From: a virus
Taxonomy: Duplodnaviria > Heunggongvirae > Uroviricota > Caudoviricetes
Length of the DNA stretch: 64,000 nucleotides
IMG/VR virus record: IMGVR_UViG_3300022871_000009
Location: 1 to 64,000 of that record
Strand: one strand, 5' to 3'
Below, piece after piece: positions 25,224 through 63,402 of the stretch. Position 1 is the stretch's first letter; each line of letters opens with the position of its first letter. The position numbers were made by a program, and so were the translations under genes. Below the pieces are notes generated by a model. The model saw only the letters and a program-made list of their open reading frames with translations. It did not search any database and was not told the DNA's origin.

Positions 25224-25249
25224 AAGAAGAATATTATTCTTCTTTTTTT
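25224..25249. terminator. bidirectional rho-independent terminator between convergent genes
   Basis: AAGAAGAATA/TATTCTTCTT stem flanked by A-run and T-run. Overlaps the last codons (KKEE) of the minus-strand 1798-aa gene. Confidence 0.5.
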
Positions 25250-50400: not shown

Positions 50401-52412
50401 GGATTAAAGTAAAATGATAATGAATCTAATATAGTTGTACTAAATCCTGCGTGTTTATACGCATATCGTGTTACTGCATCACTAGAATAAAAATTATTTT
50501 TATTAGTTGTTAGTGCTGTTGTATAATTAGCAGGGGGTTTAAGATAATCTTTAAGTGTTGATGAAAAACCAGAATGTTTATATATTTTGTCAGACACATT
50601 ATCAGTACTATATAAATTATAATAATCTAATGTAACATCTTTTAAATTTATGCTAGGAGATGAAAAACTATTTAAAACTGTGGATGAAAAACCAGAATAA
50701 TGATATATTCTTCCACGGTCAGGTGCACAAAAAAGTGCACCGTTTATTGCTAAACCTCTCACAACACGAGTATTAGAACCAGAGAAACTATCCAGTACAG
50801 TTGTACTAAATCCAGAATGTTTGTAAATTTGGTGACTAATTCCAGTTTCTCTAGAATATAAATAATTTAAATCTTTAGTAACTCCGTTAGATGATGATTC
50901 TACAGTAGGAGGAATTATAGATTCAATAACTGTAGTAGAAAAACCACTAAACTTATAAATTAATTTATCAGAACACGCAGCAATCAAATTATCTAGAAAT
51001 AATGATGTACTTGAACTAGTGGAGCTAGACGTTGACGAACTTGTTGAACTTGTAGAAGAACTAGTAGAACTCGTAGAACTAGATGTACTAGAACTTGTTG
51101 AAGAACTAGAAGTAGATAAGCTAGTCGAACTAGAAGTGGATGAACTAGTCGAACTAGAAGTGGATGAACTAGTAGAACTAGAAGTTGAGGAACTAGTAGA
51201 ACTCGATGTTGAGGAACTAGTAGAACTTGATGTAGAACTTGATGTACTAGAAGAAGTCGAACTAGAAGTAGACGAGCTAGTAGAACTAGTAGAGCTTGAT
51301 GTTGAGGAGCTAGTAGAACTTGAAGTGCTAGAAGATGTACTAGAACTAGTAGAGCTAGAAGTTGAAGACGACGTACTCGATGTTGAAGAACTAGTAGAAC
51401 TAGATGTTGAAGAGCTAGTAGAACTTGATGTTGAAGAGCTAGTAGAACTTGATGTTGAAGAGCTAGTAGAACTTGATGTAGAAGATGATGTACTTGAAGA
51501 AGTCGAACTAGAAGTAGAAGAACTAGTTGACGATGTACTGGAAGAAGTCGAACTAGAAGTAGATGAGCTAGTTGACGATGTACTCGAAGAAGTCGAACTA
51601 GATGTACTAGAGCTAGTAGAACTAGTAGAAGAACTAGTAGATGATGAAGTAGAAGATGTGGTATATCTAGCTGCAGCATCCTGCCATGAGGCTGCTGTAG
51701 AATAGGTTGATGAGTCAAAACTATCTAAAATTGTGGATGAAAATCCTGCATGTTTATAAACATCTCCAGGTGTAAAGTCAGAACTAAAAATATTAGTTCC
51801 ATCACCAGACATATCACCAATGTTGTCACCTGGTGAAGAGAAACTATCGGTAATTGTAGTAGAGAATCCAGAATGTTTAAATAATGAATCAGGAGTATTA
51901 CCATCTGCGCTATAAAAAATTCCAGATACATATGTAAAGCCCTCTGGTCTAGTAGAAGGGCCAGTAAAACTATCTAACACCGTAGAACTGAATCCATCAT
52001 GTTTATATATTTTACTAAGAGACACATCTGTACTATAAGTATTAGTCCCATCATCTGTGACAGCATACGTTTCTGTGCCTGGAGCTGAAAAGCTGTCGCT
52101 AATTGTAGTAGAAAATCCTGAATGTTTATAGACTCTTTCCGAATTCGCATCTGCAGACAAAACACCAGTAGTTGAATATTCAACTCCAAAAGGAAAAGTA
52201 CTTGGAGTAGAAAAACTATCTATTATTGTAGAACTGAATCCAGAATACTTATAAATTTGTTGGAGTGAGTATTCAGAAGTAATTGTATTATTACTATCTC
52301 CAGCAGCTTTAGACACCTCTTCATTATCAACAAAAAGATTACCTTTAATTGCTTCAAGGTAATCTTCGTCTGATAACTCGTCTGAATTTTTATGGTCGAG
52401 GTGGTCCGTCAT
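41418..52412 (-). CDS. giant 3664-aa modular fibre protein
   Basis: About 50 copies of a 38-42-aa repeat around (I/V)YKHSGFSSTILDSF...P.G(L/V)T.DG.N.YS.D. They fall into blocks of 5,5,5,10,10,5,5,5. Each block is capped by a (L/I)TW(D/E).Y..R motif and followed by an (SSST)n tract of about 30 to over 300 residues. One continuous ORF. Confidence 0.7.
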   Translation of the reverse strand: MTDHLDHKNSDELSDEDYLEAIKGNLFVDNEEVSKAAGDSNNTITSEYSLQQIYKYSGFSSTIIDSFSTPSTFPFGVEYSTTGVLSADANSERVYKHSGFSTTISDSFSAPGTETYAVTDDGTNTYSTDVSLSKIYKHDGFSSTVLDSFTGPSTRPEGFTYVSGIFYSADGNTPDSLFKHSGFSTTITDSFSSPGDNIGDMSGDGTNIFSSDFTPGDVYKHAGFSSTILDSFDSSTYSTAASWQDAAARYTTSSTSSSTSSSTSSTSSSTSSSTSSSTSSTSSSTSSSTSSSTSSTSSSTSSSTSSSTSSSTSSSTSSSTSSSTSSSTSSSTSSSTSSSTSSSTSSTSSSTSSSTSSSTSSSTSSSTSSSTSSSTSSTSSSTSSSTSSSTSSSTSSSTSSSTSSSTSSSTSSSTSSSTSSSTSSSTSSSTSLSTSSSSTSSSTSSSTSSTSSSTSSTSSSTSSSTSSSTSLFLDNLIAACSDKLIYKFSGFSTTVIESIIPPTVESSSNGVTKDLNYLYSRETGISHQIYKHSGFSTTVLDSFSGSNTRVVRGLAINGALFCAPDRGRIYHYSGFSSTVLNSFSSPSINLKDVTLDYYNLYSTDNVSDKIYKHSGFSSTLKDYLKPPANYTTALTTNKNNFYSSDAVTRYAYKHAGFSTTILDSLSFYFNPSIYGFTWDNYNKRVSFYSTTTTSSTSSSTSSSTSSSTSSTSSSTSSTSSSTSSSTSSSTSSSTSSSTSSSTSLLDDLISIGLNTGDVHNVYKYSGFSSTVKDSFAAALYTTGVTKDKTYLYTAGDFVSTNDAVYKHSGFSTTILDSFSSPSGYLGGVTINDTALFSSDYVSDKIYQHLGFSSTIADSFSSPSSAPNGLTSNKYRLFSTDTASDKIYQHSGFTSTIQSSFASPSSMPRGLAYDGKYIYSTNALPWVSESRLDYKHSGFSSTILDSFIPSDYDFDITWGHYSSRVGTTTTTSTSSSTSSSTSSSTSSSTSSTSSSTSSSTSSSTSSSTSSSTSSTSSSTSSSTSSSTSSSTSSSTTSSTSSSTSSSTSSSTSSSTSSSTSSSTTILFDNFLSADSISGKLYRHVGFSSTISDSFSSPSPVPEGVTWDGVNAYSSDSDMDMLVTKMYKHSGFSSVILDSFSSPSIAPRGLTHDTVNIYSVDYTAGKLYQHSGFSTTISDSFNSPSNAPTGITQDGDDTYSSDYFTETVYKHSGFTSTILGSFTNLANFPSVGITLKEGDIYASGPPGKMYKHSGFTSTIVSSFSTPSTTPTGIEYESIGKRLGIENLMMTNDDTDKIYKFSGFSSTVLDSFGSPSTSPSGLSYDGFDIYSANYSTRDIYHHSGFSSTILDSFGMPKSVWGVVYGDERIYSSDYWDKIYRHSGFSSTILDSFTQFLPADITMDGANIYAQNLPDAAIFKYSGFSSTVVDSFEGATGVGITWDGKNLYNTKDYGVNKHRGFSSTIIDTIDTSAIGTDSRGITWEDYWSRTAETTSSTSSSTSSSTSSSTSSSTSSSTSSTSSSTSSSTSSSTSSSTSSSTSSSTSSSTSSSTSSTSSSTSSSTSSSTSSTSSSTSTSSTSSSTSSTSSSTSSSTSSSTSSTSSSTSSSTSSSTSSTSSSTSSSTSSTSSSTSSSTSSSTSSSTSSSTSSSTSSTSSSTSSSTSSSTTIIFDELIEIDDNAISSKVYKYSGFSSTVVDSFSTPSTAPRGVTWDSKYILSGDLAGYIYQHSGFTSTILDSFASPSADPRGLTVQKDTLYSTDGVSDQIYKHSGYSSTISDSFSSPNLNPYDLTYDATDLYSTDTGIDKVYKHSGFTSTILESFAAVGSRTGLTYTGQHFITAEQSPDEFYKHSGFTSTVLDSFTGVANQGSGIDYMDYGGRLETNNYIGIGYYWNTEVFKYSGFSSTITDSFSSPSSYGFGVTSDGEDSYTSDVGLNRIFKHSGFSSTVSDSFSSPSIKPWGLTWGDDRIYSGDIDSDVLYRHSGFSSTILNSFSTPSSGSLDITLDGKNIYSADDATEKVYKHSGFSSTVLNSMAAVTPDIAGLTFDGYHIYTTDGNSAYSYKHAGFSTTIMDSFDGTPEYLLGVEWDNIWSREISTTSSTSSSTSSSTSSSTSSSTSSSTSSSTSSSTSSSTSSSTSSSTSSSTSSSTSSTSSSTSSSTSSSTSSSTSSSTSSSTSSSTSSSTSSSTSSSTSSSTSSSTSSTSSSTSSSTSSSTSSSTSSSTSSSTSSSTSSTSSSTSSSTSSSTSSSTSSSTSSSTSSSTSSTSSSTSSSTSSSTSSSTSSSTSSSTSSSTSSSTSSSTSSSTSSSTSSSTSSSTSSSTSSSTSSSTSSSTSSSTSSTSSSTSSSTSSTSSSTSSSTSSSTSSTSSSTSSSTSSSTSSTSSSTSTSSTSSSTSSTSSSTSSSTSSSTSSTSSSTSSSTSSSTSSTSSSTSSSTSSSTSSSTSSSTSSSTSSTSSSTSSSTSSSTSSSTSSSTSSSTSSTSSSTSSSTSSSTSSTSSSTSSSTSSSTSILYDDNLIAISPSIIYKYSGFSSTILESLGGVSAIGSLGVAFNKDLYSTNYNTNLIYHFSGFSSTLLDNFAAAASETYGLEADRDRMYSTDLTTEKIYIHSGFSSTISDSFAAEAINPRDIAVNKYRLFSLIDGSDRMYRHSGFTSTISDSFAAPGTRPGGFTTDSIDFYSTIFNPRSASYRKAYKHSGFSSTILDVFRTATNNFGLAWENYVKRLAITTTSSTSSSTSSSTSSTSSSTSSSTSSTSSSTSSSTSSSTSSSTSSSTSSSTSSTSSSTSSSTTLLNDDFYSVHVYGDLFFRYSGFSSTILDSFTVPSANIPAGLSWKDKLMYSGDAGLNIIYKHSGFSTTMIDSFSSPSTRYVKLTMTEPGDLYSVDKNTAKIYKHSGFTSTILDSFGTIIPYPSGLESNLYRLYSGGATLSVEYGIYRHSGFTSTISDSFATVRSSVARDANDTYGSSVSDFVKYNRFTSTILDSFAQPTGNLGGIAWGGDARFETTSSTSSSTSSSTSSTSSSTSSSTSSSTSTTTTLYENLMGVQYSDDKIYKYSGFSSTVIDSFSSPSTSPYGLTFLGDVYSGDSSSDVIYRHSGFTSTILSSFSSPSDSPQGVTIDYTNFYSIDNGTDKIYVHNGFSSTVSDSFSSPSSSPKGFTVNVARLFSIDGGSDKVYRHSGYTSTIADTFNTPSTLPGGLTLDKNDFYSTNYSIFIPVGCNVYQHSGFSSTVKDSFIPDGNVGDLTWGNYKRRLAETTTSSTSSSTSSSTSSSTSSSTSSTSSSTSSTSSSTSSSTSSSTSSSTSSSTSSSTSSSTSSSTSSSTSSSTSSSTSSSTSSSTSSSTSSSTSSSTSSSTSSSTSSSTSSSTSSSTSSSTSSSTSSSTSSSTSSSTSSSTSSSTSSSTSSSTSSSTSSTSSSTSSSTSSSTSSTSSSTSSSTSSSTSSTSSSTSSSTSSSTSSTSSSTSLSTSSSTSSSTSSTSSSTSSSTSSSTSSSTSSSTSSSTSSSTSSSTSSSTSSSTSSSTSSSTSSSTSSSTSSSTSSSTSSSTSSSTSSSTSSSTSSSTSSSTSSSTSSSTSSSTSSTSSSTSSSTSSSTSSSTSSSTSSSTSSTSSSTSSSTSSSTSSSTSSSTSSSTSTISFYIEDMEITGGLETLGRRGGISTQGVFGGGYYGF
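41521..42660. repeat. (AGT/AGA/ACT)n low-complexity DNA encoding the C-terminal (SSST)n tract (approximate bounds)
   Basis: Imperfect triplet repeats. Produces a spurious antisense E/L/V-rich ORF at 41536..42687. Confidence 0.7.
44890..46150. repeat. (SSST)n-encoding triplet-repeat tract (approximate)
   Basis: Same repeat class. Spurious antisense ORF 44962..46245. Confidence 0.7.
47425..47950. repeat. (SSST)n-encoding triplet-repeat tract (approximate)
   Basis: Same repeat class. Spurious ORFs 47284..47970 (+) and 47405..48004 (-). Confidence 0.7.
50990..51660. repeat. (SSST)n-encoding triplet-repeat tract (approximate)
   Basis: Same repeat class. Spurious ORFs 51019..51705 and 50993..51718. 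Shorter tracts lie near 43320-43430, 44070-44260, 49225-49510 and 50190-50340. Confidence 0.7.
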
Positions 52413-53802
52413 AACTTGGACGCTGTGACGTTACCTTCAGTAGAAGGTCGTTCACGCTTTTAATGTCCAAGGTTTTCATATGTTTACAAAGTAAACCGAA
52501 ATGAGTATATAGTTTGTATCCCAATTTCTGGGCTTGTTGTGAAAATACAAAATCTTCTGAATATTCGACAGTTCCGTTAGAATGGTAGGTAAAGTAAAAT
52601 GGTCTATCCATCTTCTCTAAAACCTCTCTCTTAATCATAAACATTCCACCTGTGACTACATCAGTCTCTTCGACTCCAGAACCGTAATACGGCCTGTATT
52701 TGCCCTCTGAGTCGTATCTGTGAGCCACTGGTATAGGTGCCATAAGCCCATCATCATCAACTTTCGTCGTTAGACAGGTTGGGGCCACTACGTCCTTATC
52801 AGCTTTGATAAGTTCTCTCAGTGTCTCTAAAGGAGGAATAATATCATTATCAATCATCACAAGATAATCAAAATAATCTTCTAGAAAGCTTTTTACAATA
52901 AAGTTCCGGGCATTATCCAATGGAAACATGTGTGACGCAGGGAATATCTTAACGACAAACTCTGGGTCGTGTGTCCATTGAATCAGCCTCATGGCCAGTT
53001 CAATATGTAATTTACCATCTGCTGTAGGTAGGCCTATGAAAATCCTAGGCTTTTCGCCTAGCTCATCTTTCCACTTAGCACGGTGTTTATTATATTGGCC
53101 AACAGCATACTTCTTAGAGTAGTCGACATCGTGGTCGAACAATTCTCTAAAAGCAGCTGAACCATAATGATACATGAACGAGCTTCGCACGGCTCCAATT
53201 TTGTAACCAAGCTTTTTCACTCTAAGACATATATCATTGTCATCGCCACCACCAGTACCAAATCTCTCGTCTAAGATGTGTCCTTCTCCCAAACCGAATT
53301 CTTTATTATGAGAAACCAGTTTATCAACTACTTCTCTTGTCATTGGGACACACACACCTTTTACCTCAGGAGCCTCTTCTATGCCGCCGAGATGAGAGTA
53401 TTCAATACTTTGTTTACTATCGGCCTCGCCTATTAGCGGTGCCAATATACCGTACTCTGGATTTTTCTTAAACGCTTCAACGATTTTCTCTATCCAACCT
53501 GGAACGCAGACAACGTCTGAATTCAAAAGAACTACATATTCACTATCGGGGGATACTTTAGCAAAACCTGCATTTATGGCACCGGTGTAACCCTTAGCTT
53601 CTTCATGATAGACTGACGCTGCAAAGGTATACTTTGATAACATCTCTTTCATCTCATCATCTTTTCCGTCTTGGACAATGATGAGCTCTAAGTTTGGGGT
53701 GTAACCGAATACGCTTTCAATCGCTACTCTGGTCAAATCAGGTCTAAACCTGACTGGCATTATTATTGAAACCCTCGGAAATGAATTTAAAATTTCCTTC
53801 AT
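52390..53802 (-). CDS. tandem two-domain glycosyltransferase (two GT-A/GT2-like halves)
   Basis: N-terminal half SIIMPVRFRPDLTRVAIESV...IIVQDG (GT2). Second half IFIGLPTADGKLH...VMIDNDIIPP. Immediately upstream of the giant fibre gene, with overlapping stop and start. Confidence 0.6.
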   Translation of the reverse strand: MKEILNSFPRVSIIMPVRFRPDLTRVAIESVFGYTPNLELIIVQDGKDDEMKEMLSKYTFAASVYHEEAKGYTGAINAGFAKVSPDSEYVVLLNSDVVCVPGWIEKIVEAFKKNPEYGILAPLIGEADSKQSIEYSHLGGIEEAPEVKGVCVPMTREVVDKLVSHNKEFGLGEGHILDERFGTGGGDDNDICLRVKKLGYKIGAVRSSFMYHYGSAAFRELFDHDVDYSKKYAVGQYNKHRAKWKDELGEKPRIFIGLPTADGKLHIELAMRLIQWTHDPEFVVKIFPASHMFPLDNARNFIVKSFLEDYFDYLVMIDNDIIPPLETLRELIKADKDVVAPTCLTTKVDDDGLMAPIPVAHRYDSEGKYRPYYGSGVEETDVVTGGMFMIKREVLEKMDRPFYFTYHSNGTVEYSEDFVFSQQAQKLGYKLYTHFGLLCKHMKTLDIKSVNDLLLKVTSQRPSYDGPPRP

Positions 53803-54274
53803 ATGCTTTTATTTCATTTATTTCATATAGGACATCATCATAGATATGTGAATTAACAATGATGTCTTGATTATACTCGCCAATCTGCCGAAGAGGCTGA
53901 ATTCGTGATTGGTGAGCCACATACCAAAAACCCATATCCCTTAATATCGGATATGTGCTTGCGGTAATTTGAAACCCAGGTGCTCTAAACCCGAATTTGT
54001 TAGGTAGGAGTGACGATAGTCTGCCATAAGATTCTTTTATTAATTCTTCGCGATTATCTCGCTCACATTCAGGTGGGTCGTCGTGCAACCAACCATGAAT
54101 TCCTACCTCTACCCAGTCTTTATTTTTAACTAGCCAGTTCTCAATCAATGAGTCCACTTCTCCAGCTATAGGAAAGACTGTAACTTTAAAATCTGGACGA
54201 ACTATTTTAAACTCCTCCAGTTTGTACAAATTACTAATGTATCTCTTTGATATATCATCAACAGTGAAATACAT
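53744..54274 (-). CDS. hypothetical protein (possible carbohydrate deacetylase-like)
   Basis: 176-aa ORF. Weak by-eye resemblance only (GIHGWLHDD). Confidence 0.3.
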   Translation of the reverse strand: MYFTVDDISKRYISNLYKLEEFKIVRPDFKVTVFPIAGEVDSLIENWLVKNKDWVEVGIHGWLHDDPPECERDNREELIKESYGRLSSLLPNKFGFRAPGFQITASTYPILRDMGFWYVAHQSRIQPLRQIGEYNQDIIVNSHIYDDVLYEINEIKAYEGNFKFISEGFNNNASQV

Positions 54275-54280
54275 AACTAG

Positions 54281-54730
54281 TTAGGCTTGTTTTGCTTGTC
54301 TTTTTACTTTAGCTTCAGAAATTCTGTCTGAGAATCTCTTGTTGTAACTGACACCCTTTACATCTTTAGATGGGTCAATAGCGTCAAGTTCATCAGTTGT
54401 GAATTCAAGACCTAGTTGACTTTTTATAGTCAAACGTTTAATCTTTGCTTCGTCAGTGATTTGTTCTGATAACTCTTCGTTATCATTTGAAAACGCGATA
54501 GCTTCTATTTCTGACATATCAGAAACTCTATCTTTGTCGCCAAGTATAGTTTTCCAATCGACACCGTCTCTTATTTCTAGTAACAAATCTGTTGATTTGA
54601 TACCTTCTGCAGATTCTTCTTCTGCATACAAGTGGTCTGTAATAAAAGGTTCTAGGCTACTATATCCAGAAGGATATTTCATGCCGCCTTCACCATGGGG
54701 TAGGCTTATCTTGATGTAGTTCATACACAA
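54281..54730 (-). CDS. hypothetical protein
   Basis: 149-aa ORF. Confidence 0.4.
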   Translation of the reverse strand: MCMNYIKISLPHGEGGMKYPSGYSSLEPFITDHLYAEEESAEGIKSTDLLLEIRDGVDWKTILGDKDRVSDMSEIEAIAFSNDNEELSEQITDEAKIKRLTIKSQLGLEFTTDELDAIDPSKDVKGVSYNKRFSDRISEAKVKRQAKQA

Positions 54731-54747
54731 ATTAAATTAAATGAATA

Positions 54748-55071
54748 TTATTTTTTGTCTTTTTCTTCATCTTTCTCTTCTTCATCTAGTATAAGTAGAA
54801 TTTTTCCAGCTACGAGTGGACCGTAAGCTTTATCAGTCTCTACCATCTTTTTTACTTTTTTAATGTCTGCTTTGTCTATGTCTACTACTTCTTCTGTATA
54901 AAAGCGTTGAGCTAAAACGTAAATTTTGACTTTCTCCATTTCGTAACCGCTTTGTCTTGGTGCTAAAAGGATATTAGCCATAGCCATACCCACAGTTAGG
55001 ACTTCTCCGTCTGGGGATTTTAGTGCTTCTCCCTTGAAACTTGTTATCTCCTCGTTTGTTCTAATCTTCAT
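54748..55071 (-). CDS. hypothetical protein
   Basis: 107-aa ORF downstream of the conserved promoter element. Confidence 0.4.
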   Translation of the reverse strand: MKIRTNEEITSFKGEALKSPDGEVLTVGMAMANILLAPRQSGYEMEKVKIYVLAQRFYTEEVVDIDKADIKKVKKMVETDKAYGPLVAGKILLILDEEEKDEEKDKK

Positions 55072-55113
55072 ATATTTTGAGATTAAGTTAATAAAATTTT
55101 TTAATCTAGTGAT

Positions 55114-55145
55114 ATTATAGCATAAGTCCTTATCTTCTCGTCTAC
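55114..55145 (-). promoter_or_regulatory. promoter-like site with the AGGACTTATGCTATAAT element
   Basis: Reverse complement ...gagaagatAAGGACTTATGCTATAAT. -35 is weak. Confidence 0.4.
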
Positions 55146-55537
55146 ATTTTTTCCCTAAGCATGGTAGAAGATATGTCTTTTGTGTAAGGGAGGTAAATTA
55201 CAGGCGGGCCCAAGCCTTCACCAGTGTAGTTACCCTTCCAGTCATCTCCGACAAATAACACGTCTGCATCGTATTTATCAATAGCATCTGTCTTGCTGAA
55301 GTCGCGAGACTGGATATCTATTCCATCTATAACATTTATAGTCTCTAGGTGTGCTCGTCTAGTATGAAAATCTAACGGAGGCTCATATCCTTTGTGAGCA
55401 CGAATGTACTCATCGCTAGACATACAAACAATCAACTTCTCACAATACCTCTTTGCTTCTATGAATAGGTTGATATGTCCGTAGTGTAGCGGAGAGAAAG
55501 CTCCGAAAGTTAGTCCAACTTTATATTTTGCATGCAT
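55142..55537 (-). CDS. cytidylyltransferase-family nucleotidyltransferase (glycerol-3-phosphate/choline-phosphate cytidylyltransferase-like)
   Basis: GAFSPLHYGH (HxGH motif). Fits the short approximately 130-aa CTP_transf_like proteins. Probable start at MHAKYKVG; the track ORF extends to 55594. Confidence 0.6.
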   Translation of the reverse strand: MHAKYKVGLTFGAFSPLHYGHINLFIEAKRYCEKLIVCMSSDEYIRAHKGYEPPLDFHTRRAHLETINVIDGIDIQSRDFSKTDAIDKYDADVLFVGDDWKGNYTGEGLGPPVIYLPYTKDISSTMLREKM

Positions 55538-56924
55538 AATATTGACTTGTACAAGCCCTGCGAGACCAGGCCATAGGCCCATAAATAGGCTCACTCCACG
55601 TTTTTCCGTAGTTAGACTCTAGATATTCGTCCACAGGGTTAGGAATTAAGTACCCTTTTCCATCATATTTTATCATTTTTGCATTTTCGAACCACTCTTT
55701 TGGATGTTTTGCACAGAACTTCTGCCGCTTTCTACCCTTGAGAATGTTCATTGTGGCGTCATCTTCATCATAATAGATGGGGTCTAGGTCATTTCTTACC
55801 CCATATTTCTTGAAACTTAGAGTCCTAACGTAGGTTTCTGGGCTTTCATACCCATCTTTTTTCTTTACTCTAGGTATATCCTTTTTTATCTTTATATCAG
55901 TAAAGCCAGCTTTTGCGAACACATTCACATCAATTTTGTGCGTATCTCTAGCATCTATGATGAAATCATTATCCCAGTCATATTTCAGAATGTCTCCGTC
56001 TCTCACTATGCCTAGGCATGTCCCGAAAGCTAAAAAGTGTTTTACCCCCATTTTGTCTAGCAAATCGCTAGTTTCCCTGAGTGCTTTCTTGGCATTCTCA
56101 CGACCAACAGGCACACGCTTGTCTCCTCCACGAAGGTAGTCCTCTACAGTCATATCAGGCTCGCGCCTGAACGTGTCTCTTACTTCTTGTGGGTGCATCT
56201 CAGTAACTGGCTTAGGTAGACGCCAAAGAGCCTCGGAGTTGCGTGAGTTTCCCTTCCAATGGTCATTTCGCCAGTTTCGTTTTTCTATAGTAAGACTACA
56301 CAAATGTGTCAATGTTCTTGTGTCACCCATTCTGTCCTGTTTTGTAAGAGGATGGTAATTGCAAGCAGTTCTATAAGGAATAGCAGTTAACTCAGTAAAA
56401 AACTTAAAAATACGGGTATGCCCTGTCATGCTTTTATTGTGGATTGTCATCATATCACCGAAGACATCTACAGGTTTCATTGTTAAAGCTTTTTTTGTCT
56501 TATCAGCCCAAAACTTCTCAAGTAACTCAGGTAAGTGGTCATTAAATATCTCGTCAGAATCAGGCCAAATCAACATATCTACTTTCTCTCCACCTTTTTC
56601 AACGTCCCTCATATACTGGAATACTGTCTCTCTTATTGGCCCCTGCAGGGGTTTAAACCTGTGGAAAAGACCTCTGCGTGAAGATTCCTGCTCTGGAGTT
56701 GCTCTGGGCAACCCCGAATGAGCTATTCTGATTCTATCTGGATATCTGTCCTTATATTCCTGAACAATCTTCATTGTAGTTTCGTCTTCGTTATCTATCA
56801 TAAGCAATACCCAATCACACCATTTTAATAAGTTCGGGATTGAGTGATGTAAAATACCACCACATCTAGCGACAAGGGTAGCTCCCACGATATTTATATC
56901 TTGTAAAAAATCTCTATGCTTCAT
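55521..56924 (-). CDS. fusion protein: GT-A-like glycosyltransferase N-terminal domain plus LicD-family phosphotransferase C-terminal domain
   Basis: C-terminal FLAFGTCLGIVRDGDILKYDWDNDFII matches the LicD nucleotidyltransferase-fold motif (GTxLGxxRxxxxIPWDDDxD). The N-terminal region resembles a GT2 fold. Confidence 0.55.
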   Translation of the reverse strand: MKHRDFLQDINIVGATLVARCGGILHHSIPNLLKWCDWVLLMIDNEDETTMKIVQEYKDRYPDRIRIAHSGLPRATPEQESSRRGLFHRFKPLQGPIRETVFQYMRDVEKGGEKVDMLIWPDSDEIFNDHLPELLEKFWADKTKKALTMKPVDVFGDMMTIHNKSMTGHTRIFKFFTELTAIPYRTACNYHPLTKQDRMGDTRTLTHLCSLTIEKRNWRNDHWKGNSRNSEALWRLPKPVTEMHPQEVRDTFRREPDMTVEDYLRGGDKRVPVGRENAKKALRETSDLLDKMGVKHFLAFGTCLGIVRDGDILKYDWDNDFIIDARDTHKIDVNVFAKAGFTDIKIKKDIPRVKKKDGYESPETYVRTLSFKKYGVRNDLDPIYYDEDDATMNILKGRKRQKFCAKHPKEWFENAKMIKYDGKGYLIPNPVDEYLESNYGKTWSEPIYGPMAWSRRACTSQYYACKI

Positions 56925-57481
56925 GTTATTGTTTTTAATTTAGTCTCGTGATGACATTCCATACATAATGTTTTTCCGTTGTTTAGATTCCATAATTCAT
57001 TACACTGCAAAGCATCTTCAATTGAGTTAATATTGTTATCTATTATAATATCTATAAACCTTTTGATATGATGTGCTTCCAAATTACCTCCATGTTTTTC
57101 ACACTCAACACATGTGTAATTATCTCTCCTAAATACCTTATTTCTCCACTCAAAATATTTTGGGATATTTCTTATAGCTTTAGTCAACTTAGTTTTTCCT
57201 CCTCTCCAATTTGGGTGTTTTTCTCTAGCATGCTGCCCCTTTTTAAAATGAGTTCTGCCAGTATTTAATTGAGCATGCCCTCTCTGGAATCCCTCAACTT
57301 TCTTGTGTTTTCTTTTACTATTAGCTGAACCTATTCTTTCTTTATGTATTTTAGATAATTTTCTATTTCTGATACTCCTGTAAAAACAATTGCGACTACA
57401 ATACTTAGCTTGCTTTCTAGAAGATGGATAAAAACTAAATTTTTTACCGCATATCCTACATTTTACCTGTTCTTTTTTCAT
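56921..57481 (-). CDS. free-standing HNH endonuclease with zinc fingers
   Basis: CVECEKHGGNLEAHHIKRF...NLNNGKTLCMECHHETK HNH signature plus N-terminal CxxC pairs. Confidence 0.6.
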   Translation of the reverse strand: MKKEQVKCRICGKKFSFYPSSRKQAKYCSRNCFYRSIRNRKLSKIHKERIGSANSKRKHKKVEGFQRGHAQLNTGRTHFKKGQHAREKHPNWRGGKTKLTKAIRNIPKYFEWRNKVFRRDNYTCVECEKHGGNLEAHHIKRFIDIIIDNNINSIEDALQCNELWNLNNGKTLCMECHHETKLKTIT

Positions 57482-57489
57482 GCAAATTA

Positions 57490-58686
57490 CTAATATCGTT
57501 TATGATGGAAAATAAAAGTAGGTTTATTAGTACAAATAAAATTTTCTGTTCCCTCCCCATCGAAAATCTTGTGCATGAAATCGAAGTCGTACGTGACTTG
57601 TCTAGTATCCTGAAAATATCCATATTTAATGAAGTGGTCTTTTCTGTACAACAAACAACCTAAATCTATTCCCTGTCTACCGAAATGAGTTTGTTTTATC
57701 CGATTGTAAGTAGACTCTGGCTTCTTACCAATCAGTCTCATCCAGCAATAAGGAATTTTACCAGTAGTCATTTCAGCTTCTACCATTGATTGTAAATGCT
57801 CTGGAGTCCATTCGTTATCATCATCTAAGAAAACAATACGGTCATATTTAGCTATCATCGCACCAATATTTCTGGAGTATAGGCCAAATCTACCACGTGT
57901 TTCTTCTACGTCTACAAAAGATACGTCTATTCCTTGTTCAAGAAGATAATCCTTACCTAACCGATACCATTCGCGTATTTCTTTTTGTCCATCATTTACA
58001 ATTATCCATTCAAAATCTTCAAATGATTGTCTCATAATAGAAGCTACAACCGCCCCCATGTTTTCAGCCCTAAAAGCGGCTGTGACGATAGATACTTTTA
58101 TGTTTTGCTTGATAGGTACGAACTTGAGCATAGACTGTCTAAAACAGCCGTTTTTGCCCACCAGGGTGACGTTCCAGCCAGTTGCTAGCTCTTTTATCTC
58201 GTCTATTATATAACTGAATCTTTTTGTCTCGCTATCTTCAGTAGGGTTGTTTTTTGAATCACCCATAGAGATAGAAGCATAAAACTTCCCATCAGCATTC
58301 ATTACAGGAAGGAGATTATCCAAACACTCCTTAATTTTATCTTTTACTAAGTGTGTGAATACAGACTTTGCAATTACGTAATCAAATTTTCTTTCTTTAA
58401 ATGAAGAAAAATCGAAGTTATCTGTATGAACTAGGTTAGGTCTGTTTCTACGCTGGTTTTTATCCATTTCCTTCTCTACACCAGCATCAAGTAGCCACTG
58501 GTGCTTTTCAACACCGTGATAGTTCCCTGGGTCAAGATAATCTATAAAGTGAACTCCCGCCCTTAGAGACCCGCAACCGATATCCAAAAACTTATGATAA
58601 GGTTGCAAACCTTCCTCCTTGAGAAAATCTATTTGTTTCTTGCCAGCTTCCTCCCAGTTGCCGCCAACGTATTTTCTGTGGTCCAT
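57490..58686 (-). CDS. bifunctional class I SAM methyltransferase (N-terminal) / GT2 glycosyltransferase (C-terminal)
   Basis: FLDIGCGSLRAG matches SAM motif I. C-terminal VSIVTAAFRAENMGAVVASIMRQSFEDFEWIIVNDG matches the GT2 start. Confidence 0.6.
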   Translation of the reverse strand: MDHRKYVGGNWEEAGKKQIDFLKEEGLQPYHKFLDIGCGSLRAGVHFIDYLDPGNYHGVEKHQWLLDAGVEKEMDKNQRRNRPNLVHTDNFDFSSFKERKFDYVIAKSVFTHLVKDKIKECLDNLLPVMNADGKFYASISMGDSKNNPTEDSETKRFSYIIDEIKELATGWNVTLVGKNGCFRQSMLKFVPIKQNIKVSIVTAAFRAENMGAVVASIMRQSFEDFEWIIVNDGQKEIREWYRLGKDYLLEQGIDVSFVDVEETRGRFGLYSRNIGAMIAKYDRIVFLDDDNEWTPEHLQSMVEAEMTTGKIPYCWMRLIGKKPESTYNRIKQTHFGRQGIDLGCLLYRKDHFIKYGYFQDTRQVTYDFDFMHKIFDGEGTENFICTNKPTFIFHHKRY

Positions 58687-58687
58687 A

Positions 58688-59278
58688 TTATTTTCCTTCA
58701 GCTATACCTTCATGGCCATAACGGATTAGGTCATCTTTGTAGTATGGCTTATGAATTTTATAAATTATTCCTAGACCTGATTTTGATAGTGGCAAAGCAG
58801 ACTTTGGATAGTCAACTTCATCCCAAAAGAATCGTACTACGCCTTTATGAGGCCAAAGTACATCATGCATGAGGATTATTCCACCTTCCTTCACAAAAGG
58901 CTCAAAACGTTCATAATCGGCCTTCACGCCTTCGTAAGAGTGGTCTCCATCTATAAGTAGTACATCTATTTCCTTGTCCCATGGCAGAGTTTTAGAATCT
59001 CCTTGCATAAACTCCCAATGCTTCTTTAGCTCTGGGTCTTTCACAACTCCAGTACAATCCTCGATATCCATGCTATACAACTTAAGATTCTTATGTCCTC
59101 TGTCGTGTATACCATGTAGGAAGGCCAATGTGCTTGTACCCCATCTTGTTCCAATTTCTAAAATTGTACGCGCACCTTTTTTATAGTCAGTAGCGACTGA
59201 GTAAAGTAGTGGTACGAATCCTCCCATATTAGCTCCCTTACGTTTTACGTCGTTTAACTCTTGTGGGTAGTTTTCCAT
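58688..59278 (-). CDS. class I SAM-dependent methyltransferase (O-methyltransferase/Methyltransf_24-like)
   Basis: ILEIGTRWGTSTLAF...LIDGDHSYEGVKAD pattern. Confidence 0.55.
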   Translation of the reverse strand: MENYPQELNDVKRKGANMGGFVPLLYSVATDYKKGARTILEIGTRWGTSTLAFLHGIHDRGHKNLKLYSMDIEDCTGVVKDPELKKHWEFMQGDSKTLPWDKEIDVLLIDGDHSYEGVKADYERFEPFVKEGGIILMHDVLWPHKGVVRFFWDEVDYPKSALPLSKSGLGIIYKIHKPYYKDDLIRYGHEGIAEGK

Positions 59279-59289
59279 ATTTTATCTTT

Positions 59290-60030
59290 TTATTTAAAAA
59301 TTCTCTCACCATCCAATGGCTTATTAGTCATTAAATCTATTTGTGGGTATGGTTTTTCTTCCAATGCTTGACCACGTCTCCATGTCCCAGTTCCATGTTT
59401 TTCTGTCTTTATTTTATATCCCTTATCTTTACCATAGCCTAAATGGTTACACCACAAATCTGATGCCCATCCAGCTTCTTTCCCAATTTTGCGTATTAAA
59501 GATGTGAAACCAAACTCTTCATAGTGCTTCTTGCCAAAACCACCAGCTTCCAGTATGTCATCTAATCTCTGGATTCTGAAATAACTAGCTAATCCTTTTC
59601 TAGCTGGTGTTATATCAGAATCGAGCCAATTCATATTAGGTATTCTTTGTATTCTACAACTTATACCACCATATTCTGGATATTTTTTCATTAAAAAAAT
59701 CAACTGGTCAACAACATCTGGTTTTAAAGATGGGATGATAATATCGTCAAAGGTCGTTATGAAATATTCAGATTTTACATATTTTAAACCCTCATCCCAT
59801 GCGACAGAGATGCCTCTGTACCCTTTCCCATTATTATTTAGTAGAGTACTTACAACTTTTTTTTCAACCATCTCTTCCAAAAATTCAAATGTTCCATCAC
59901 TTGATAAATCGTCAGTTACTATAAGGTTAACTCTACTAAAAGGTATAATTCTTTTTGTTAGTTCTTCTATACATTTTTTTGTAAACTCCAACCTATTACA
60001 CGTCATTAATATAATATCTATTTTATTCAT
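59290..60030 (-). CDS. family 2 glycosyltransferase
   Basis: IDIILMTCNRLEFTKKCIE...IVTDDLSSDGT. Confidence 0.65.
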   Translation of the reverse strand: MNKIDIILMTCNRLEFTKKCIEELTKRIIPFSRVNLIVTDDLSSDGTFEFLEEMVEKKVVSTLLNNNGKGYRGISVAWDEGLKYVKSEYFITTFDDIIIPSLKPDVVDQLIFLMKKYPEYGGISCRIQRIPNMNWLDSDITPARKGLASYFRIQRLDDILEAGGFGKKHYEEFGFTSLIRKIGKEAGWASDLWCNHLGYGKDKGYKIKTEKHGTGTWRRGQALEEKPYPQIDLMTNKPLDGERIFK

Positions 60031-60034
60031 ATAA

Positions 60035-61348
60035 TTATCTTTTTTTAGCTACGATTAAAGCGACAAATTTACTAGGATTATTTTTCTCAACGTGGCAAGA
60101 ACGTATAACTCTCATGCCGAGCAGTCTCCTAAGCATTAGGTTAAGTGTATTCAGCCCAAGGTTAGCCTTGTGCCCGTTGTATATTATGTACTTGGGTTTT
60201 ATTTCTCCATCAGGGACTGCGATAGCTAGTACCCCCCCTGGTTTTAAAACTCTTTTCCATTCTGCTATTGCAGCCACAGTATCTGGTAAATGTTCCAACA
60301 AATGTGAACTAACAATGAAATCAAGTTCGTTATCTTTAAACATCCACAAATCTGTACAATCTCCTACAATATCTACGTTATCATGAGGATATACATCCAT
60401 ACCCATGGCATTTTCGTGGCATTTCATAAAACCACAGCCTAAGTCCAACCCTTTCCCTGTTTCACAGTATTTTGATAGTTCAATCTGCTCGGCAATCAAT
60501 CTTTTTCTAGCATTACCAGCTCTATCATCTCTGCCCCAATAATCGTAATATGCTTGCCTCCTCTTATGTTCCTCACTGTCTCTTACTGTGTTTATTTTAA
60601 GAGGAATATTAGTCCTCTTGTCTATTTCTGGATATGGTTGCTCTTTGTTTTGAAATACACGTTCTTCAGCATAAGTATGATAATCAGTAAACCCAGTTTT
60701 GAACCCCTTATTATCTACAAAACCGATATGAGACGCATAGACCTTAGTAGCCATTCCAACTTTTTTTCCAGTCTTCTTAACTTTATCTGAAAAAGTATGA
60801 GACTCCCAATGAGGTCTATTTGAAAAACCGATATGTTCCAGCATGTCTCTACCAGTTATTCTAAAAACAGCAGGACATGCTGTGTCAGAAGGAATTATTT
60901 TAGAAAATTCATCGATATCTCTCCTTCTTGTTCTTTCTATTCTCATAGAGACAGCGCCATAATCTACGTTATCCTCCAATAGATGAATCATTCCTTCCAG
61001 CCAACATGGTCTCAAATCTGGCGGCAACAAATCATCTTGAGTTTGAACTACCAGGTCGCTTATTTTCCCTTTTAACTTACTATTAGCATAATTATATAAA
61101 AATTTGTAACCTGCAGCTTGGCCACCATTATCCTCTGCAACAACAAAATCATACACATACCCCCAACTTTTAGCCTGTTTTAGATATCTTGTAGTGTCAT
61201 TATCATTTTTATTATTATTGACAATCCACAATCTAAACGGATAACGTGTTCTTTCGTATATATGTTTTACTGTTCTTTTAAGTAAATGAAGTCTGTTATA
61301 TGTTACCAAAAAAATATCTACAAAGTCTTTGTTTTCTATTTTTTCCAT
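60035..61348 (-). CDS. bifunctional GT2 glycosyltransferase (N-terminal) / class I SAM methyltransferase (C-terminal)
   Basis: N-terminal VDIFLVTYNRLHLLKRTV matches GT2. C-terminal GLDLGCGFMKCHENAMGMDV...LKPGGVLAIAVP matches SAM MTase motifs I and post-I. Confidence 0.6.
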   Translation of the reverse strand: MEKIENKDFVDIFLVTYNRLHLLKRTVKHIYERTRYPFRLWIVNNNKNDNDTTRYLKQAKSWGYVYDFVVAEDNGGQAAGYKFLYNYANSKLKGKISDLVVQTQDDLLPPDLRPCWLEGMIHLLEDNVDYGAVSMRIERTRRRDIDEFSKIIPSDTACPAVFRITGRDMLEHIGFSNRPHWESHTFSDKVKKTGKKVGMATKVYASHIGFVDNKGFKTGFTDYHTYAEERVFQNKEQPYPEIDKRTNIPLKINTVRDSEEHKRRQAYYDYWGRDDRAGNARKRLIAEQIELSKYCETGKGLDLGCGFMKCHENAMGMDVYPHDNVDIVGDCTDLWMFKDNELDFIVSSHLLEHLPDTVAAIAEWKRVLKPGGVLAIAVPDGEIKPKYIIYNGHKANLGLNTLNLMLRRLLGMRVIRSCHVEKNNPSKFVALIVAKKR

Positions 61349-61349
61349 A

Positions 61350-61976
61350 TTATAATATTTTATCTTTTTTTCTGTAATTATCTAACGCTTCTAAAGGTCT
61401 CAAATTATCTAGAGACCAACAGGACTCAAACTCATCATCATCTACTGAGGAATAATTAAATTTAGAGTCAGGAATTATGTGGTCAATATTCCACTCCCCC
61501 CTATTAAATCCATAATTATCCCAAGACATCCATGATTCAAATTTTGATTCTAAATTTTTAATAAGGTCATCTATGGTATAAGGCAGAATATCAAAAGTAG
61601 GCACCCCTTTTTTAGACAATAATCTTTTTTTAAGTCTATTTCTAACCAACCAAGATACCGTATATCTAAGCTTAAAATGTGGATTATTCTTATTTCTATG
61701 ATAATATCTTCTCCTACTCTCTTTTATTCCTCCCTTGTAATTCATCTTGTCCCTACAAACTAATGAACAATAATTATGTTTATTCTCTCTCAACTTAGAT
61801 GGTATACGTAACAATTCTTCGCCGCAGGAATCACATTGAACCTTTTGCACTTTAACCTGTGCTCTATGCTTGCATTTCCTTGAACAATATTTTCTTTTTT
61901 TTAATAATGACCTTTGAACATAAAAACTTTTTCCACAAAAAATACAGACCTTATTTGCTCCAGCACGATTATTCAT
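61350..61976 (-). CDS. free-standing HNH-like endonuclease with zinc fingers
   Basis: CIFCGKSF...CSRKC...CDSCGEE...CSLVC zinc knuckles. NIDHIIPDSKF HNH-like core. Confidence 0.5.
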   Translation of the reverse strand: MNNRAGANKVCIFCGKSFYVQRSLLKKRKYCSRKCKHRAQVKVQKVQCDSCGEELLRIPSKLRENKHNYCSLVCRDKMNYKGGIKESRRRYYHRNKNNPHFKLRYTVSWLVRNRLKKRLLSKKGVPTFDILPYTIDDLIKNLESKFESWMSWDNYGFNRGEWNIDHIIPDSKFNYSSVDDDEFESCWSLDNLRPLEALDNYRKKDKIL

Positions 61977-63402
61977 AGAGCACAGGTGCTAACATTTTAT
62001 GATATATAGCATCGAAACTGTGGGTGCTCCAAACCTTTCTGAATTGTTTGTCAGGTTTATTTGATTCTAACTGTCCGATAATAATCTTAGCCAATCTATC
62101 GAAGGCCTGAGGGTCTCGCTCTGCGTAGTGCATGCTCTTCAAAGAAGTGAAAGGGTGCTTGAGCACAGCATTAGTATCTACGAAATCAAACAAACAAGGT
62201 AAATCTTCGTTAATAACTAGTAAGTTTTTAGCCATAGAAGCTTCCAGCAATACATTGCTACACACCTCCGCTATGGTAGGGAATACAAACAAGTTAGATA
62301 TTTGCATTAATTGTGCTACGACTTTATTTGGAACCTCAGTAAGAGTATCGTAGCCGTCATCACTGAGCAAGCTAGTAAACACAAAATCAGTCTCATCAAG
62401 ACCGTGCACTTCTCTAGCAAATTTTAATTTATCTTCAATTTCGTCTACTCTTCGTCTGCCGTTTGAATTGCAGACAATTAGAGCGACATTCTTGCCCTGT
62501 CTCTTAAGAGCTCCGAATGTAGCTATTACAGAATTTAGACCTTTGGCATCCATTCTTGTGGTACAGATAGGATATGTCTGGATGACATCTTTCTCCCACA
62601 ATCTCATCTTGTCGCTGACCATCCTAGTCGTAGGATGCCAATCAAACATTAGTGATGGGTCTTTCTCGTTAAAAATCACACGCACATCGCTATCTCTTAC
62701 TCCGATGTTTCTAGCAAAACCACCAACATCTGCATAGTTCATATAGACATACTTTGTGTTGTCCATTCTGAAATCAATCGGTCTGCCCACTCCAGAACGG
62801 GCCCAGTGTAGCCATTTAATAGGAACTCCACATTCTCTTATAGCTTCTCGGTATGTTATACAATCGTCTATATAAAAATCATGAGTTATAGCGATATCGA
62901 AATCATTTGTAAGCGCACTCCTGAGCATATCAATCATCCTAGTCTTTGCATCCTCATCAACTATACCCTTCTCACGCTTGAATTTAGGTACCACAGGGCG
63001 CATTTCACACCCAATGTCTAATGTACTGCCTTCTTGTGTAAAAAAAACAACCTCGTGCCCATAATGCTGTAACATCTTGATTTGATTCTTTACAGCACGC
63101 CCAGGAGAATAGCTATCAGGGCATCTGTTAAAATGCGTAATTATAGCTATCTTCAGAGGTTTCTCATTTTCAAGAGCCTCAGGCGCTTTAGTTATTGGCA
63201 CAGGTTGTTCTGGTTTTATTCCAAGTGACCTGACAGCATGGTCTAGTGAAGGGATTATATCGTCTCTAGGGAATTCTTCTTGTACTGCATAGTGAGCCAA
63301 GTTATTCTCCTCTTTACTAGGGTCTTTGATTGTAGCAGTTATAAAATAACTGCCAGAGTTCTTTGCTGCCTGGATTATACTGTCTATGTTGCTATTATTC
63401 AT
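61969..63402 (-). CDS. hypothetical protein, possible glycosyltransferase (GT-B-like)
   Basis: 477-aa ORF at the end of the GT island. No firm motif. Confidence 0.3.
   Translation of the reverse strand: MNNSNIDSIIQAAKNSGSYFITATIKDPSKEENNLAHYAVQEEFPRDDIIPSLDHAVRSLGIKPEQPVPITKAPEALENEKPLKIAIITHFNRCPDSYSPGRAVKNQIKMLQHYGHEVVFFTQEGSTLDIGCEMRPVVPKFKREKGIVDEDAKTRMIDMLRSALTNDFDIAITHDFYIDDCITYREAIRECGVPIKWLHWARSGVGRPIDFRMDNTKYVYMNYADVGGFARNIGVRDSDVRVIFNEKDPSLMFDWHPTTRMVSDKMRLWEKDVIQTYPICTTRMDAKGLNSVIATFGALKRQGKNVALIVCNSNGRRRVDEIEDKLKFAREVHGLDETDFVFTSLLSDDGYDTLTEVPNKVVAQLMQISNLFVFPTIAEVCSNVLLEASMAKNLLVINEDLPCLFDFVDTNAVLKHPFTSLKSMHYAERDPQAFDRLAKIIIGQLESNKPDKQFRKVWSTHSFDAIYHKMLAPVLYE

Follow-up and report, generated by a model that had tools for sequence, protein, structure and literature searches.

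Long serine-rich-repeat adhesins of Gram-positive bacteria are O-glycosylated in the cytoplasm by soluble glycosyltransferases encoded next to the adhesin gene; a GT-B enzyme initiates the glycan and GT-A enzymes extend it. FKRP, a member of the LicD family, adds a polyol-phosphate derived from a cytidine diphosphate (CDP) donor to the O-mannosyl glycan on the mucin-like domain of α-dystroglycan. Mycobacteriophages of the Che8/Corndog type use glycosyltransferases and an O-methyltransferase on virion proteins (Freeman 2023, as cited in PMC12619734 and PMC11600133). The chlorovirus PBCV-1 encodes a GT–GT–methyltransferase (A064R) and a stand-alone methyltransferase (A061L) and has a rhamnose-containing capsid glycan (PMC9614988), and the Megavirinae have glycosylation gene clusters for their surface fibrils (PMC10117803). 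Here, we describe an island of glycosyltransferase, methyltransferase and phosphotransferase genes at positions 52390–63402 (minus strand) of a 64,000-nucleotide stretch of DNA (the window; positions 1 to 64,000 of IMG/VR record IMGVR_UViG_3300022871_000009), part of the genome of an uncultivated tailed bacteriophage of ~100 kb. The island lies immediately upstream of one uninterrupted open reading frame (ORF) for a giant protein of 3664 amino acids (aa) that is rich in Ser/Thr tracts (41418–52412, minus strand) and is the proposed substrate. The reading we favour, with moderate confidence, is a soluble, phage-encoded system for O-glycosylation of Ser/Thr stalks, with O-methylation and a probable glycerol-phosphate-type cap.

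The island resembles the mycobacteriophage systems in its tandem phage glycosyltransferases and O-methyltransferase, with the phage's own structural proteins as the proposed or shown targets, and the C-terminal glycosylation sites of mycobacteriophages recall a C-terminal tract tail found in relatives of this phage. It differs in having eight to nine enzyme genes rather than three to four, in the addition of a LicD phosphotransferase, a cytidylyltransferase and glycosyltransferase–methyltransferase fusions, and in offering hundreds of (SSST)n residues in fibre-like proteins rather than short capsid or tail-tube C-termini; no sequence relation is detectable among 50,697 phage records. With the chloroviruses and Megavirinae, it shares soluble virus glycosyltransferases fused to sugar O-methyltransferases, a stand-alone methyltransferase, virus-encoded synthesis of 6-deoxyhexose nucleotide sugars, virion glycans (on capsids or surface fibrils there, proposed here), and a cluster content that varies between clades. 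Those are, however, giant viruses of eukaryotes, in PBCV-1 the major capsid protein carries N-linked glycans, and LicD, phosphocholine and glycerol phosphate are unmentioned in PMC9614988.

Serine-rich-repeat loci likewise encode a very long Ser-rich repeat protein beside a cluster of soluble glycosyltransferases. In contrast to the accessory Sec (aSec) loci, SecA2/SecY2 and any membrane protein were not found in the island, there is no sequence match to GtfA/B structures, the repeat is SSST rather than SASESAST-type, and the product would leave the cell by phage lysis as part of the virion. With FKRP/fukutin and LicD/CpsC, the island shares a DxD motif and the nucleotidyltransferase fold of the LicD family, with FKRP as the best structural match, but it joins LicD to a GT-A domain in one protein and belongs to a phage. 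The island works like the mycobacteriophage, chlorovirus, Megavirinae and serine-rich-repeat systems and is a sequence-level member of none of them. An earlier sequence-only reading of the window had called such a system highly unusual for a virus; this goes too far, since virion systems of glycosyltransferases and O-methyltransferases are documented in mycobacteriophages, chloroviruses and Megavirinae (PMC12619734, PMC11600133, PMC9614988, PMC10117803). A phage with this enzyme combination was not found described in the literature searched, of which coverage was incomplete, and a mucin-like substrate together with a LicD/cytidylyltransferase pair seems to be undescribed so far in a phage.

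The giant Ser/Thr protein

The giant protein consists of ten modules of ~210 aa, each composed of five ~41-aa repeats (YKHSGFSSTILDSF...), with eight (SSST)n tracts of 35–416 aa (>95% Ser/Thr) between modules. The tracts total 1455 aa, or ~40% of the protein, and a 35-aa C-terminal tail (41418–41525) closes it. A model of the module built from the ten internal copies is a five-bladed β-propeller of 20 strands (predicted local distance difference test score, pLDDT, 89). Foldseek finds likenesses to an archaeal S-layer YVTN propeller, BtuG surface lipoproteins, NHL domains and glutaminyl cyclases. A Pfam search of the propeller modules returned no match, and stand-alone homologues of the module occur on other metagenomic contigs. 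Neither a signal peptide nor a membrane segment was found in the giant protein.

The tracts are encoded by mixed synonymous Ser and Thr codons, and their DNA repeats match at only 68–90%, indicating selection on the protein composition of the tracts. An origin of the tracts in a DNA microsatellite or an antisense gene was rejected because the sense ORF is uninterrupted over 3664 codons, the propellers are confidently modelled and have homologues, and the codons are mixed.

Tract 1 (~51000–51665) spans 206, 214 or 222 aa across samples (L001, L002, L004 and L006), in steps of 8 aa, and the remaining visible tracts are identical between samples. The variation could reflect a real polymorphism or an effect of repeat assembly. 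In public gene calls for identical contigs (L001–L003, 14.5–21.4 kb), antisense ‘LELVLEVEEL’ ORFs replace the giant ORF. Such artefacts expose an annotation blind spot, and databases probably under-report proteins with Ser/Thr tracts in general.

Genomic setting of the island

The island is an unbroken run of 13 minus-strand ORFs, each at least 100 aa long, and is 98.9% coding; 118 bases are non-coding, and adjoining ORFs overlap or are separated by at most 70 nt. The sequence-only reading had placed eleven minus-strand genes upstream of the fibre gene. Strand and position stand, and the count does not; two HNH endonucleases, two small ORFs and a NodB-type deacetylase-like protein had gone unmentioned. 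The final island ORF (52390–53802) overlaps the start of the giant ORF by 23 nt, and the minus-strand gene array runs past the giant ORF unbroken down to 25234. This tight packing suggests co-transcription of the island and the giant gene; promoter and terminator scans gave results at or below shuffled expectation and are uninformative on operon structure.

The giant ORF is followed by the gene for an SU10-type adaptor protein (39975–41366, minus strand; PF24175, E 1.9e-16; phrog_399 structural protein), which holds the matching position in the related loci L007, L029 and L052. This order places the giant ORF in a virion (neck/tail) gene module. Farther downstream, beyond the adaptor, are a LysM/transglycosylase protein and an M23 peptidase, as in virion-associated lysins. 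A Pfam search of several structural proteins neighbouring the giant gene returned no match, and no head genes were identified in the sequence examined around the island. The island DNA and the adaptor protein have no match among 50,697 deposited phage records; the window sequence recurs in metagenomes, where at least 23 contigs, the longest of 98 kb, carry it.

The island sits inside the structural (late) gene array, apart from the replication genes at 2–24 kb, which encode a primase-helicase, a replication initiator and an SNF2-type helicase. This position bears on the idea that the glycosyltransferases and methyltransferases hypermodify the phage DNA against restriction. DNA glucosylation is the best-known activity of phage glycosyltransferases (PMC9614988; PMC12619734, citing Pyle 2024), and a further GT2 gene (9251–10099) lies beside a helicase gene. 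The island is nevertheless far from the replication genes, a non-exhaustive scan of window ORFs turned up no hydroxymethylase- or thymidylate-synthase-like gene, no action on DNA is known for LicD or TagD-like enzymes, and the linkage to Ser/Thr tracts is left unexplained. DNA hypermodification fits least of the alternatives considered here, and we regard it as highly improbable.

Co-occurrence of the island and Ser/Thr tracts

Homologous islands are present on many metagenomic contigs, several of them 70–110 kb long. Loci covering ±10 kb were gathered with the LicD fusion (homologues at 30–66% identity), seven further IMG/VR loci were gathered via the GT-B, and the presence or absence of each island gene was scored with a blastp matrix. 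A core is conserved in content and order: the GT-B, the GT2–methyltransferase, the GT2, the Methyltransf_24 protein, the methyltransferase–GT2 and the GT-A domain of the LicD fusion.

With a Ser/Thr tract defined as at least 40 aa of at least 90% Ser+Thr, 18 out of 20 distinct contigs with an island (at least 9.5 kb of sequence each) encode tracts on the island strand no more than 10 kb away. One of the two exceptions stops at the LicD gene. None of the six distinct island-free loci has a tract. The association has a Fisher p of ~1e-4, which overstates independence because the loci are related. Where island and tracts co-occur, the enzymes are 30–68% identical across relatives, and the tract carriers are not mutually homologous across loci. 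The carriers contain propellers in the window phage, Laminin_G_3 (ConA-like lectin) domains in L007, L019 and L039, and other repeat or large unassigned domains in L014, L027, L029 and L052. It is therefore the tract, and not any single protein, that stays linked to the island.

Several of these unrelated carriers (the giant protein and those of L007, L029, L039 and L052) share a short tail after the last tract, (I/F)(I/Y)xED(W/M)x(P/I)…G…YG(S/F). This shared C-terminal tail may be a virion-anchoring peptide.

When the adaptor gene serves as the anchor of the comparison, tracts and island are present together in the window, L007, L029 and L052, and both are missing within 10 kb upstream in L053/54, L055 and L057 (adaptor 35–40% identical). 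The contigs of the latter three (75–101 kb) were also unmatched in the IMG/VR scans with the GT-B and the LicD fusion, which are pattern-based and imperfect. L052 and the GT-B locus L064 are one 101-kb contig. The near-constant pairing of island and tracts in related phages indicates that these phages probably make mucin-like glycoprotein fibres with their own enzymes. The link between enzymes and Ser/Thr tracts drawn by the sequence-only reading thus gains comparative support from co-occurrence and co-absence; glycosylation itself is what we infer.

A conserved protein of ~200 aa with a C-terminal tract is encoded just upstream of the GT-B in all seven of the IMG/VR loci. This protein (…NAAYFFISGTSFYTR…EIRWRIDRVEFW…) is found at ~7.2–9.6 kb in L059–L065 and also in L011, L012, L027 and L042; its terminal Ser/Thr tract is 79–190 aa long, and its gene lies 1–2.5 kb upstream of the GT-B. 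It has no Pfam match, is not present in the window phage and may decorate the capsid, its tail being glycosylated. A 369-aa gene upstream of the island was considered as its counterpart and rejected. That gene (L002 2075–3184), just past window position 64000 and two ORFs upstream of the GT-B across an 89-aa ORF, encodes a lysin-like protein with a papain-like cysteine protease and a peptidoglycan-binding domain.

The tracts could alternatively be no more than flexible linkers that stay unglycosylated or receive glycans from host enzymes, with the island serving a free glycoconjugate or another target, such as capsid or tail proteins glycosylated at other sites in the manner of mycobacteriophages. 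Many proteins have unglycosylated Ser/Thr-rich linkers, the mycobacteriophage targets are described as C-termini of capsid and tail-tube proteins (PMC12619734), and conservation is poor among the genes closest to the giant gene. However, tracts of 35–416 residues with >95% Ser/Thr that occupy ~40% of 3664 aa far exceed ordinary linkers, the pattern of co-occurrence and co-absence speaks against independence, and the ~200-aa protein with a C-terminal tract beside the GT-B of relatives itself resembles the C-terminal mycobacteriophage targets. We consider the linker explanation unlikely.

The LicD fusion and the cytidylyltransferase

The gene at 55521–56924 (minus strand) encodes a fusion of a GT-A domain (residues ~1–265) and a LicD-family phosphotransferase domain (residues ~275–467), assigned from Pfam, NCBIfam and fold. 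The whole protein scores 26.4 bits against PF04991 (gathering cut-off 22.6) and matches the NCBIfam LicD-type Mf1 profile with an E of 2.7e-14. The profile matches are fragmentary, covering residues 382–440 (Pfam) and 277–326 (Mf1); most homologues of the fusion carry PF04991 in precomputed annotation. In an alignment of 17 homologues, P121-D122-x-D124-E125 is invariant in the GT-A half, and F300-G301...D316-W317-D318-x-D320 (the DWDxD motif) is invariant in the LicD half.

The AlphaFold2 model of the fusion has a pLDDT of 91.4. For the C-terminal half, the best Foldseek match in the PDB is FKRP (E 4e-12); for the N-terminal half, matches to SpsA, TarP, SunS and heparosan synthase range from 1e-6 to 1e-5. 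The modelled LicD domain has a predicted nucleotidyltransferase fold with a conserved acidic DxD motif, and the N-terminal half is a putative GT-A by fold only, plus the invariant PD-x-DE. The predicted activity of the LicD domain is transfer of a phospho-alcohol from a CDP-activated donor, for which the co-occurrence of a cytidylyltransferase offers indirect support.

This TagD/TarD-like cytidylyltransferase, with an HYGH motif, is encoded at 55142–55594 (minus strand; a later ATG start is possible and would give 131 aa). It matches PF01467 with an E of 8e-15 (55.7 bits, cut-off 21) and aligns over its full length (residues 28–149) with PDB entries 2b7l (E 1.6e-17) and 1coz (E 5e-17). HYGH and YTKDISST correspond to the HxGH and RTxGISTT-type nucleotide-binding motifs of the family. 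The best NCBIfam match, TIGR01518, scores 79 bits against an equivalog cut-off of 165, so the protein is a member of the cytidylyltransferase superfamily and not a certified TagD.

Across loci, presence of the LicD domain goes with presence of the cytidylyltransferase, and absence with absence. All loci that have the LicD domain and reach further downstream have an adjoining cytidylyltransferase gene, and loci with the GT-A domain alone mostly do not, the exceptions being L064 (38%) and, with a weaker match, L033. We propose that the cytidylyltransferase makes the CDP-alcohol donor of the LicD domain. TagD/TarD is a glycerol-3-phosphate cytidylyltransferase that makes CDP-glycerol, and bacterial phosphocholine normally needs LicC, which belongs to a different fold family. 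Since the cytidylyltransferase is closest to TagD/TarD, a glycerol-phosphate-type group is favoured over phosphocholine; the CDP-alcohol pairing suggested by the sequence-only reading gains support from co-variation, and its phosphocholine option is the less favoured one. A precedent is CpsC of Actinobacillus pleuropneumoniae, a LicD-family enzyme that uses CDP-glycerol from a TagD-type enzyme (PMC11666461). TagD-like similarity and this precedent together make a glycerol-phosphate-type group the best guess.

The fusion, fed by the TagD-like enzyme, might act as a two-activity polymerase that builds a teichoic-acid-like poly(glycosyl-glycerol-phosphate) on the O-glycosylated stalks, a reading we hold to be doubtful. 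If it were true, a large and widespread clade of ~100-kb uncultivated phages would carry proteoglycan-like, anionic, methylated brushes that are entirely phage-made, with swappable binding domains on the stalks and a virion surface chemistry new for phages.

Glycosyltransferases and methyltransferases

The first and most conserved island gene (61969–63402, minus strand) encodes a probable GT-B (GT4-like) glycosyltransferase. Its own Pfam matches are weak: Glyco_trans_1_4 and Glycos_transf_1 appear with an E of 1e-3, below cut-off, and PF00534 scores 18.7 bits against a gathering threshold of 26.4. It matches the phrog_2170 glycosyltransferase (E 4e-8), and its family includes at least 198 homologue clusters at 49–68% identity, many of which carry PF00534, PF13692 or PF13439. 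The motif E379-x7-E387 is invariant across aligned homologues. Sequence and profile searches of the PDB returned no match. What the sequence-only reading had listed as a possible GT-B thus falls below cut-off on its own score and is supported by the PF00534/PF13692 annotation of homologues at 52–68% identity and the invariant E-x7-E. By analogy with GtfA/B, this enzyme is a candidate initiating protein O-glycosyltransferase.

GT-B clusters are common in metagenomes, many on contigs of 80–105 kb. Among 185,579 species genomes, the GT-B profile has one match, L066 (CAZOCS010000201.1), a 3.2-kb contig binned to Cloacimonadota that is too short to trust as a host indicator. This near-absence argues that the gene is not a recent capture of a host pathway.

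The next conserved gene (60035–61348, minus strand) encodes an N-terminal GT2 domain (PF00535 E 1.2e-7, residues 12–137, 32.3 bits) fused to a C-terminal class I S-adenosylmethionine (SAM) methyltransferase (PF08241 E 9e-13, residues 320–376). It is followed by a stand-alone GT2 glycosyltransferase (59290–60030, minus strand; PF00535 E 4.9e-10, 40.0 bits) and a stand-alone SAM methyltransferase (58688–59278, minus strand; Methyltransf_24 PF13578 E 2.9e-19). The latter has weak similarity to PF01596 (O-methyltransferase) and PF04989 (rhamnosyl O-methyltransferase) and is kept at 59–74% identity in relatives. In the protein encoded at 57490–58686 (minus strand), the domain order of the first fusion is reversed, with the methyltransferase at the N-terminus (PF08242 E 2e-10, residues 34–135) and GT2 at the C-terminus (PF00535 E 3e-12, residues 200–317, 47.1 bits).

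The island ends, next to the giant gene, with a tandem glycosyltransferase (52390–53802, minus strand). Pfam identifies a GT2 domain (PF00535 E 2e-25, residues 12–125, 89.9 bits) and a second GT-A domain (Anp1 E 8e-7, residues 297–352; Glyco_trans_2_3, residues 382–431); relatives have weak homologues alone (23–28%). All four PF00535 scores exceed the gathering threshold of 23.3 bits. Profile hidden Markov model searches for LicD, CTP_transf_like, GT2 and Methyltransf_24, together with the fold of the LicD fusion, bore out the domain assignments of the sequence-only reading: the tandem two-domain glycosyltransferase, the GT/LicD fusion, the small cytidylyltransferase with HYGH, the two GT2–methyltransferase fusions in opposite order, the stand-alone O-methyltransferase-like protein and the additional GT2.

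In the related islands L007 (6.2–8.1 kb) and L008 (4.4–7.1 kb), we observed DegT/DnrJ/EryC1 aminotransferases and extra methyltransferases, which the window island lacks. Islands with aminotransferases suggest clade-specific glycans, for example with amino-deoxy sugars.

No island protein contains a membrane-like segment. A search of the window for a Wzx/Wzy-like multi-span ORF, a flippase, a polymerase or a polyprenyl-phosphate transferase yielded no candidate. The lack of membrane segments and of any lipid-carrier machinery found supports a soluble cytoplasmic system. It also bears on the possibility that the island alters or builds a glycopolymer of the host envelope (teichoic acid, lipopolysaccharide (LPS)/O-antigen or capsule) during infection, for superinfection exclusion, receptor masking or easier release, in which case the Ser/Thr genes would be neighbours within a shared ‘surface-interaction’ module. 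GT2, LicD, TagD-like, NodB-like and rml genes are classic parts of wall glycopolymer pathways, some GT-B homologues are labelled ‘glycosyltransferase involved in cell wall biosynthesis’, and wall teichoic acid is the substrate of TarP and TarS, both structural matches. Besides the membrane and lipid-carrier functions not found, this explanation is opposed by the location of the island in the late structural array rather than among early genes, by a tract linkage that holds though the carrier proteins change, by the joint absence of island and tracts in adaptor relatives, and by the near-absence of the GT-B family from the species genomes. We judge envelope modification to be improbable.

Sugar-nucleotide genes

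Three plus-strand genes at 17.7–20.3 kb encode an RmlD-like reductase (17761–18591), a dTDP-glucose 4,6-dehydratase (RmlB; 18597–19556) and an RmlA-like thymidylyltransferase (19549–20313), where dTDP is deoxythymidine diphosphate. RmlB scores 421 bits against TIGR01181, above the equivalog cut-off of 365. The RmlA-like protein reaches 250 bits against rmlA (cut-off 361), and the best NCBIfam match of the RmlD-like protein is rmlD at 80 bits (cut-off 224). RmlC was not found by Pfam or NCBIfam among the ORFs scanned, and two small ORFs upstream of the rml genes, considered as RmlC, found no support. L-rhamnose in particular is therefore not supported, and of the rmlA/rmlB/rmlD-like donor genes named by the sequence-only reading, RmlB stands above its cut-off. 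A dTDP-6-deoxyhexose other than L-rhamnose, or use of a host RmlC, is possible.

A second nucleotide-sugar epimerase/reductase, of the short-chain dehydrogenase/reductase (SDR) type, is encoded at 2093–2995 (minus strand; phrog_540 E 6e-61). It might stand in for the RmlC/RmlD steps.

Proposed pathway

For the system we favour, the donor, sugars, order of steps, target and virion attachment would be as follows. The RmlA-like, RmlB and RmlD-like proteins, possibly with the SDR protein, would supply a dTDP-6-deoxyhexose donor, and the TagD-like cytidylyltransferase would make a CDP-alcohol, most likely CDP-glycerol. A soluble glycosyltransferase, for which the GT-B is the best candidate, would attach the initial sugar to the hydroxyl groups of Ser/Thr. 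The glycan could then be extended by five to six GT-A domains and O-methylated by three methyltransferase domains, and the LicD domain would cap it with a phospho-alcohol from the CDP donor, in the manner of FKRP. The resulting stiff, hydrated, protease-resistant stalks would display binding domains on the virion: propellers here and ConA-like lectins in relatives.

Several points weigh against this pathway. The support is genomic throughout, and metagenomes are the only source of this phage. The phages counted for co-occurrence are related to one another, and the counts lack phylogenetic independence; the loci are limited to ±10 kb, and pattern-based scans can overlook divergent homologues, as the LicD-fusion scan did the LicN homologue on the L052/L064 contig. 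A helicase-anchored base-rate control in IMG/VR comprises three loci only, a small control set. Conservation in relatives is lowest for the genes next to the giant gene (the tandem GT2, the deacetylase-like gene and both small ORFs). Enzymes of the GT2, LicD, TagD and Rml kinds also make up the usual equipment for synthesizing cell-wall glycopolymers. Three donor-related proteins (the cytidylyltransferase and the RmlA-like and RmlD-like proteins) fall short of their NCBIfam equivalog cut-offs, and RmlC was not found. The giant protein is assigned to the virion by gene position.

If the proposed pathway is correct, phages, beyond giant eukaryotic viruses and a few actinophages, can autonomously make mucin-like virion glycoproteins and add to them a phospho-alcohol group usually associated with teichoic acids and dystroglycan. 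With at least 198 metagenomic clusters of the GT-B family, the system would be common in nature and unseen in culture. It would bear on how phages adhere, persist in the environment and are shielded from immunity or proteases, and the pairing of defined enzymes with a simple repetitive acceptor would be attractive for glyco-engineering.

Other genes of the island and the window

Two island genes encode HNH endonucleases. One (61350–61976, minus strand; phrog_1271 E 4.5e-12) is present only in some relatives' islands, and the second (56921–57481, minus strand) matches phrog_8446 (E 1e-10) and phrog_589 (E 1e-9). Homologues of both endonucleases occur in a subset of related islands, a patchiness that fits mobile homing-type inserts outside the pathway.

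Three short genes lie between the cytidylyltransferase and the tandem glycosyltransferase, all on the minus strand. The ORFs at 54748–55071 (107 aa; no significant family match) and 54281–54730 (149 aa, TTG start; no family match) have homologues in L013 and L019 only. The third (53744–54274, 176 aa) encodes a short NodB-type polysaccharide deacetylase-like protein that matches PF01522 with an E of 6.8e-5, at 23.3 bits barely over the cut-off of 23.1. In its translation, FTVDD, HGWLH and FRAPGF resemble NodB motifs 1–3, and the gene is not widely conserved in relatives.

The distal part of the structural array encodes two very large proteins of 1798 aa (25234–30630, minus strand) and 783 aa (30635–32986, minus strand). 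Neither has a PHROGs match, and the 783-aa protein has no Pfam match. No tRNAs were found in the window. The plus-strand neighbours of the rml genes (13715–14749, 14929–16278, 16591–17139 and 20316–22427) encode a metallophosphatase and an SMC/AAA_23 protein (an SbcCD-like pair), an SPFH/Band 7 protein and a RuvC-like resolvase. A Fic/DOC-domain protein (1587–2108, minus strand; E 5e-12) overlaps the end of the SDR gene. The extra GT2 outside the island (9251–10099, plus strand; E 1e-12) lies directly upstream of the SNF2-type helicase and could serve DNA modification or another glycosylation step.

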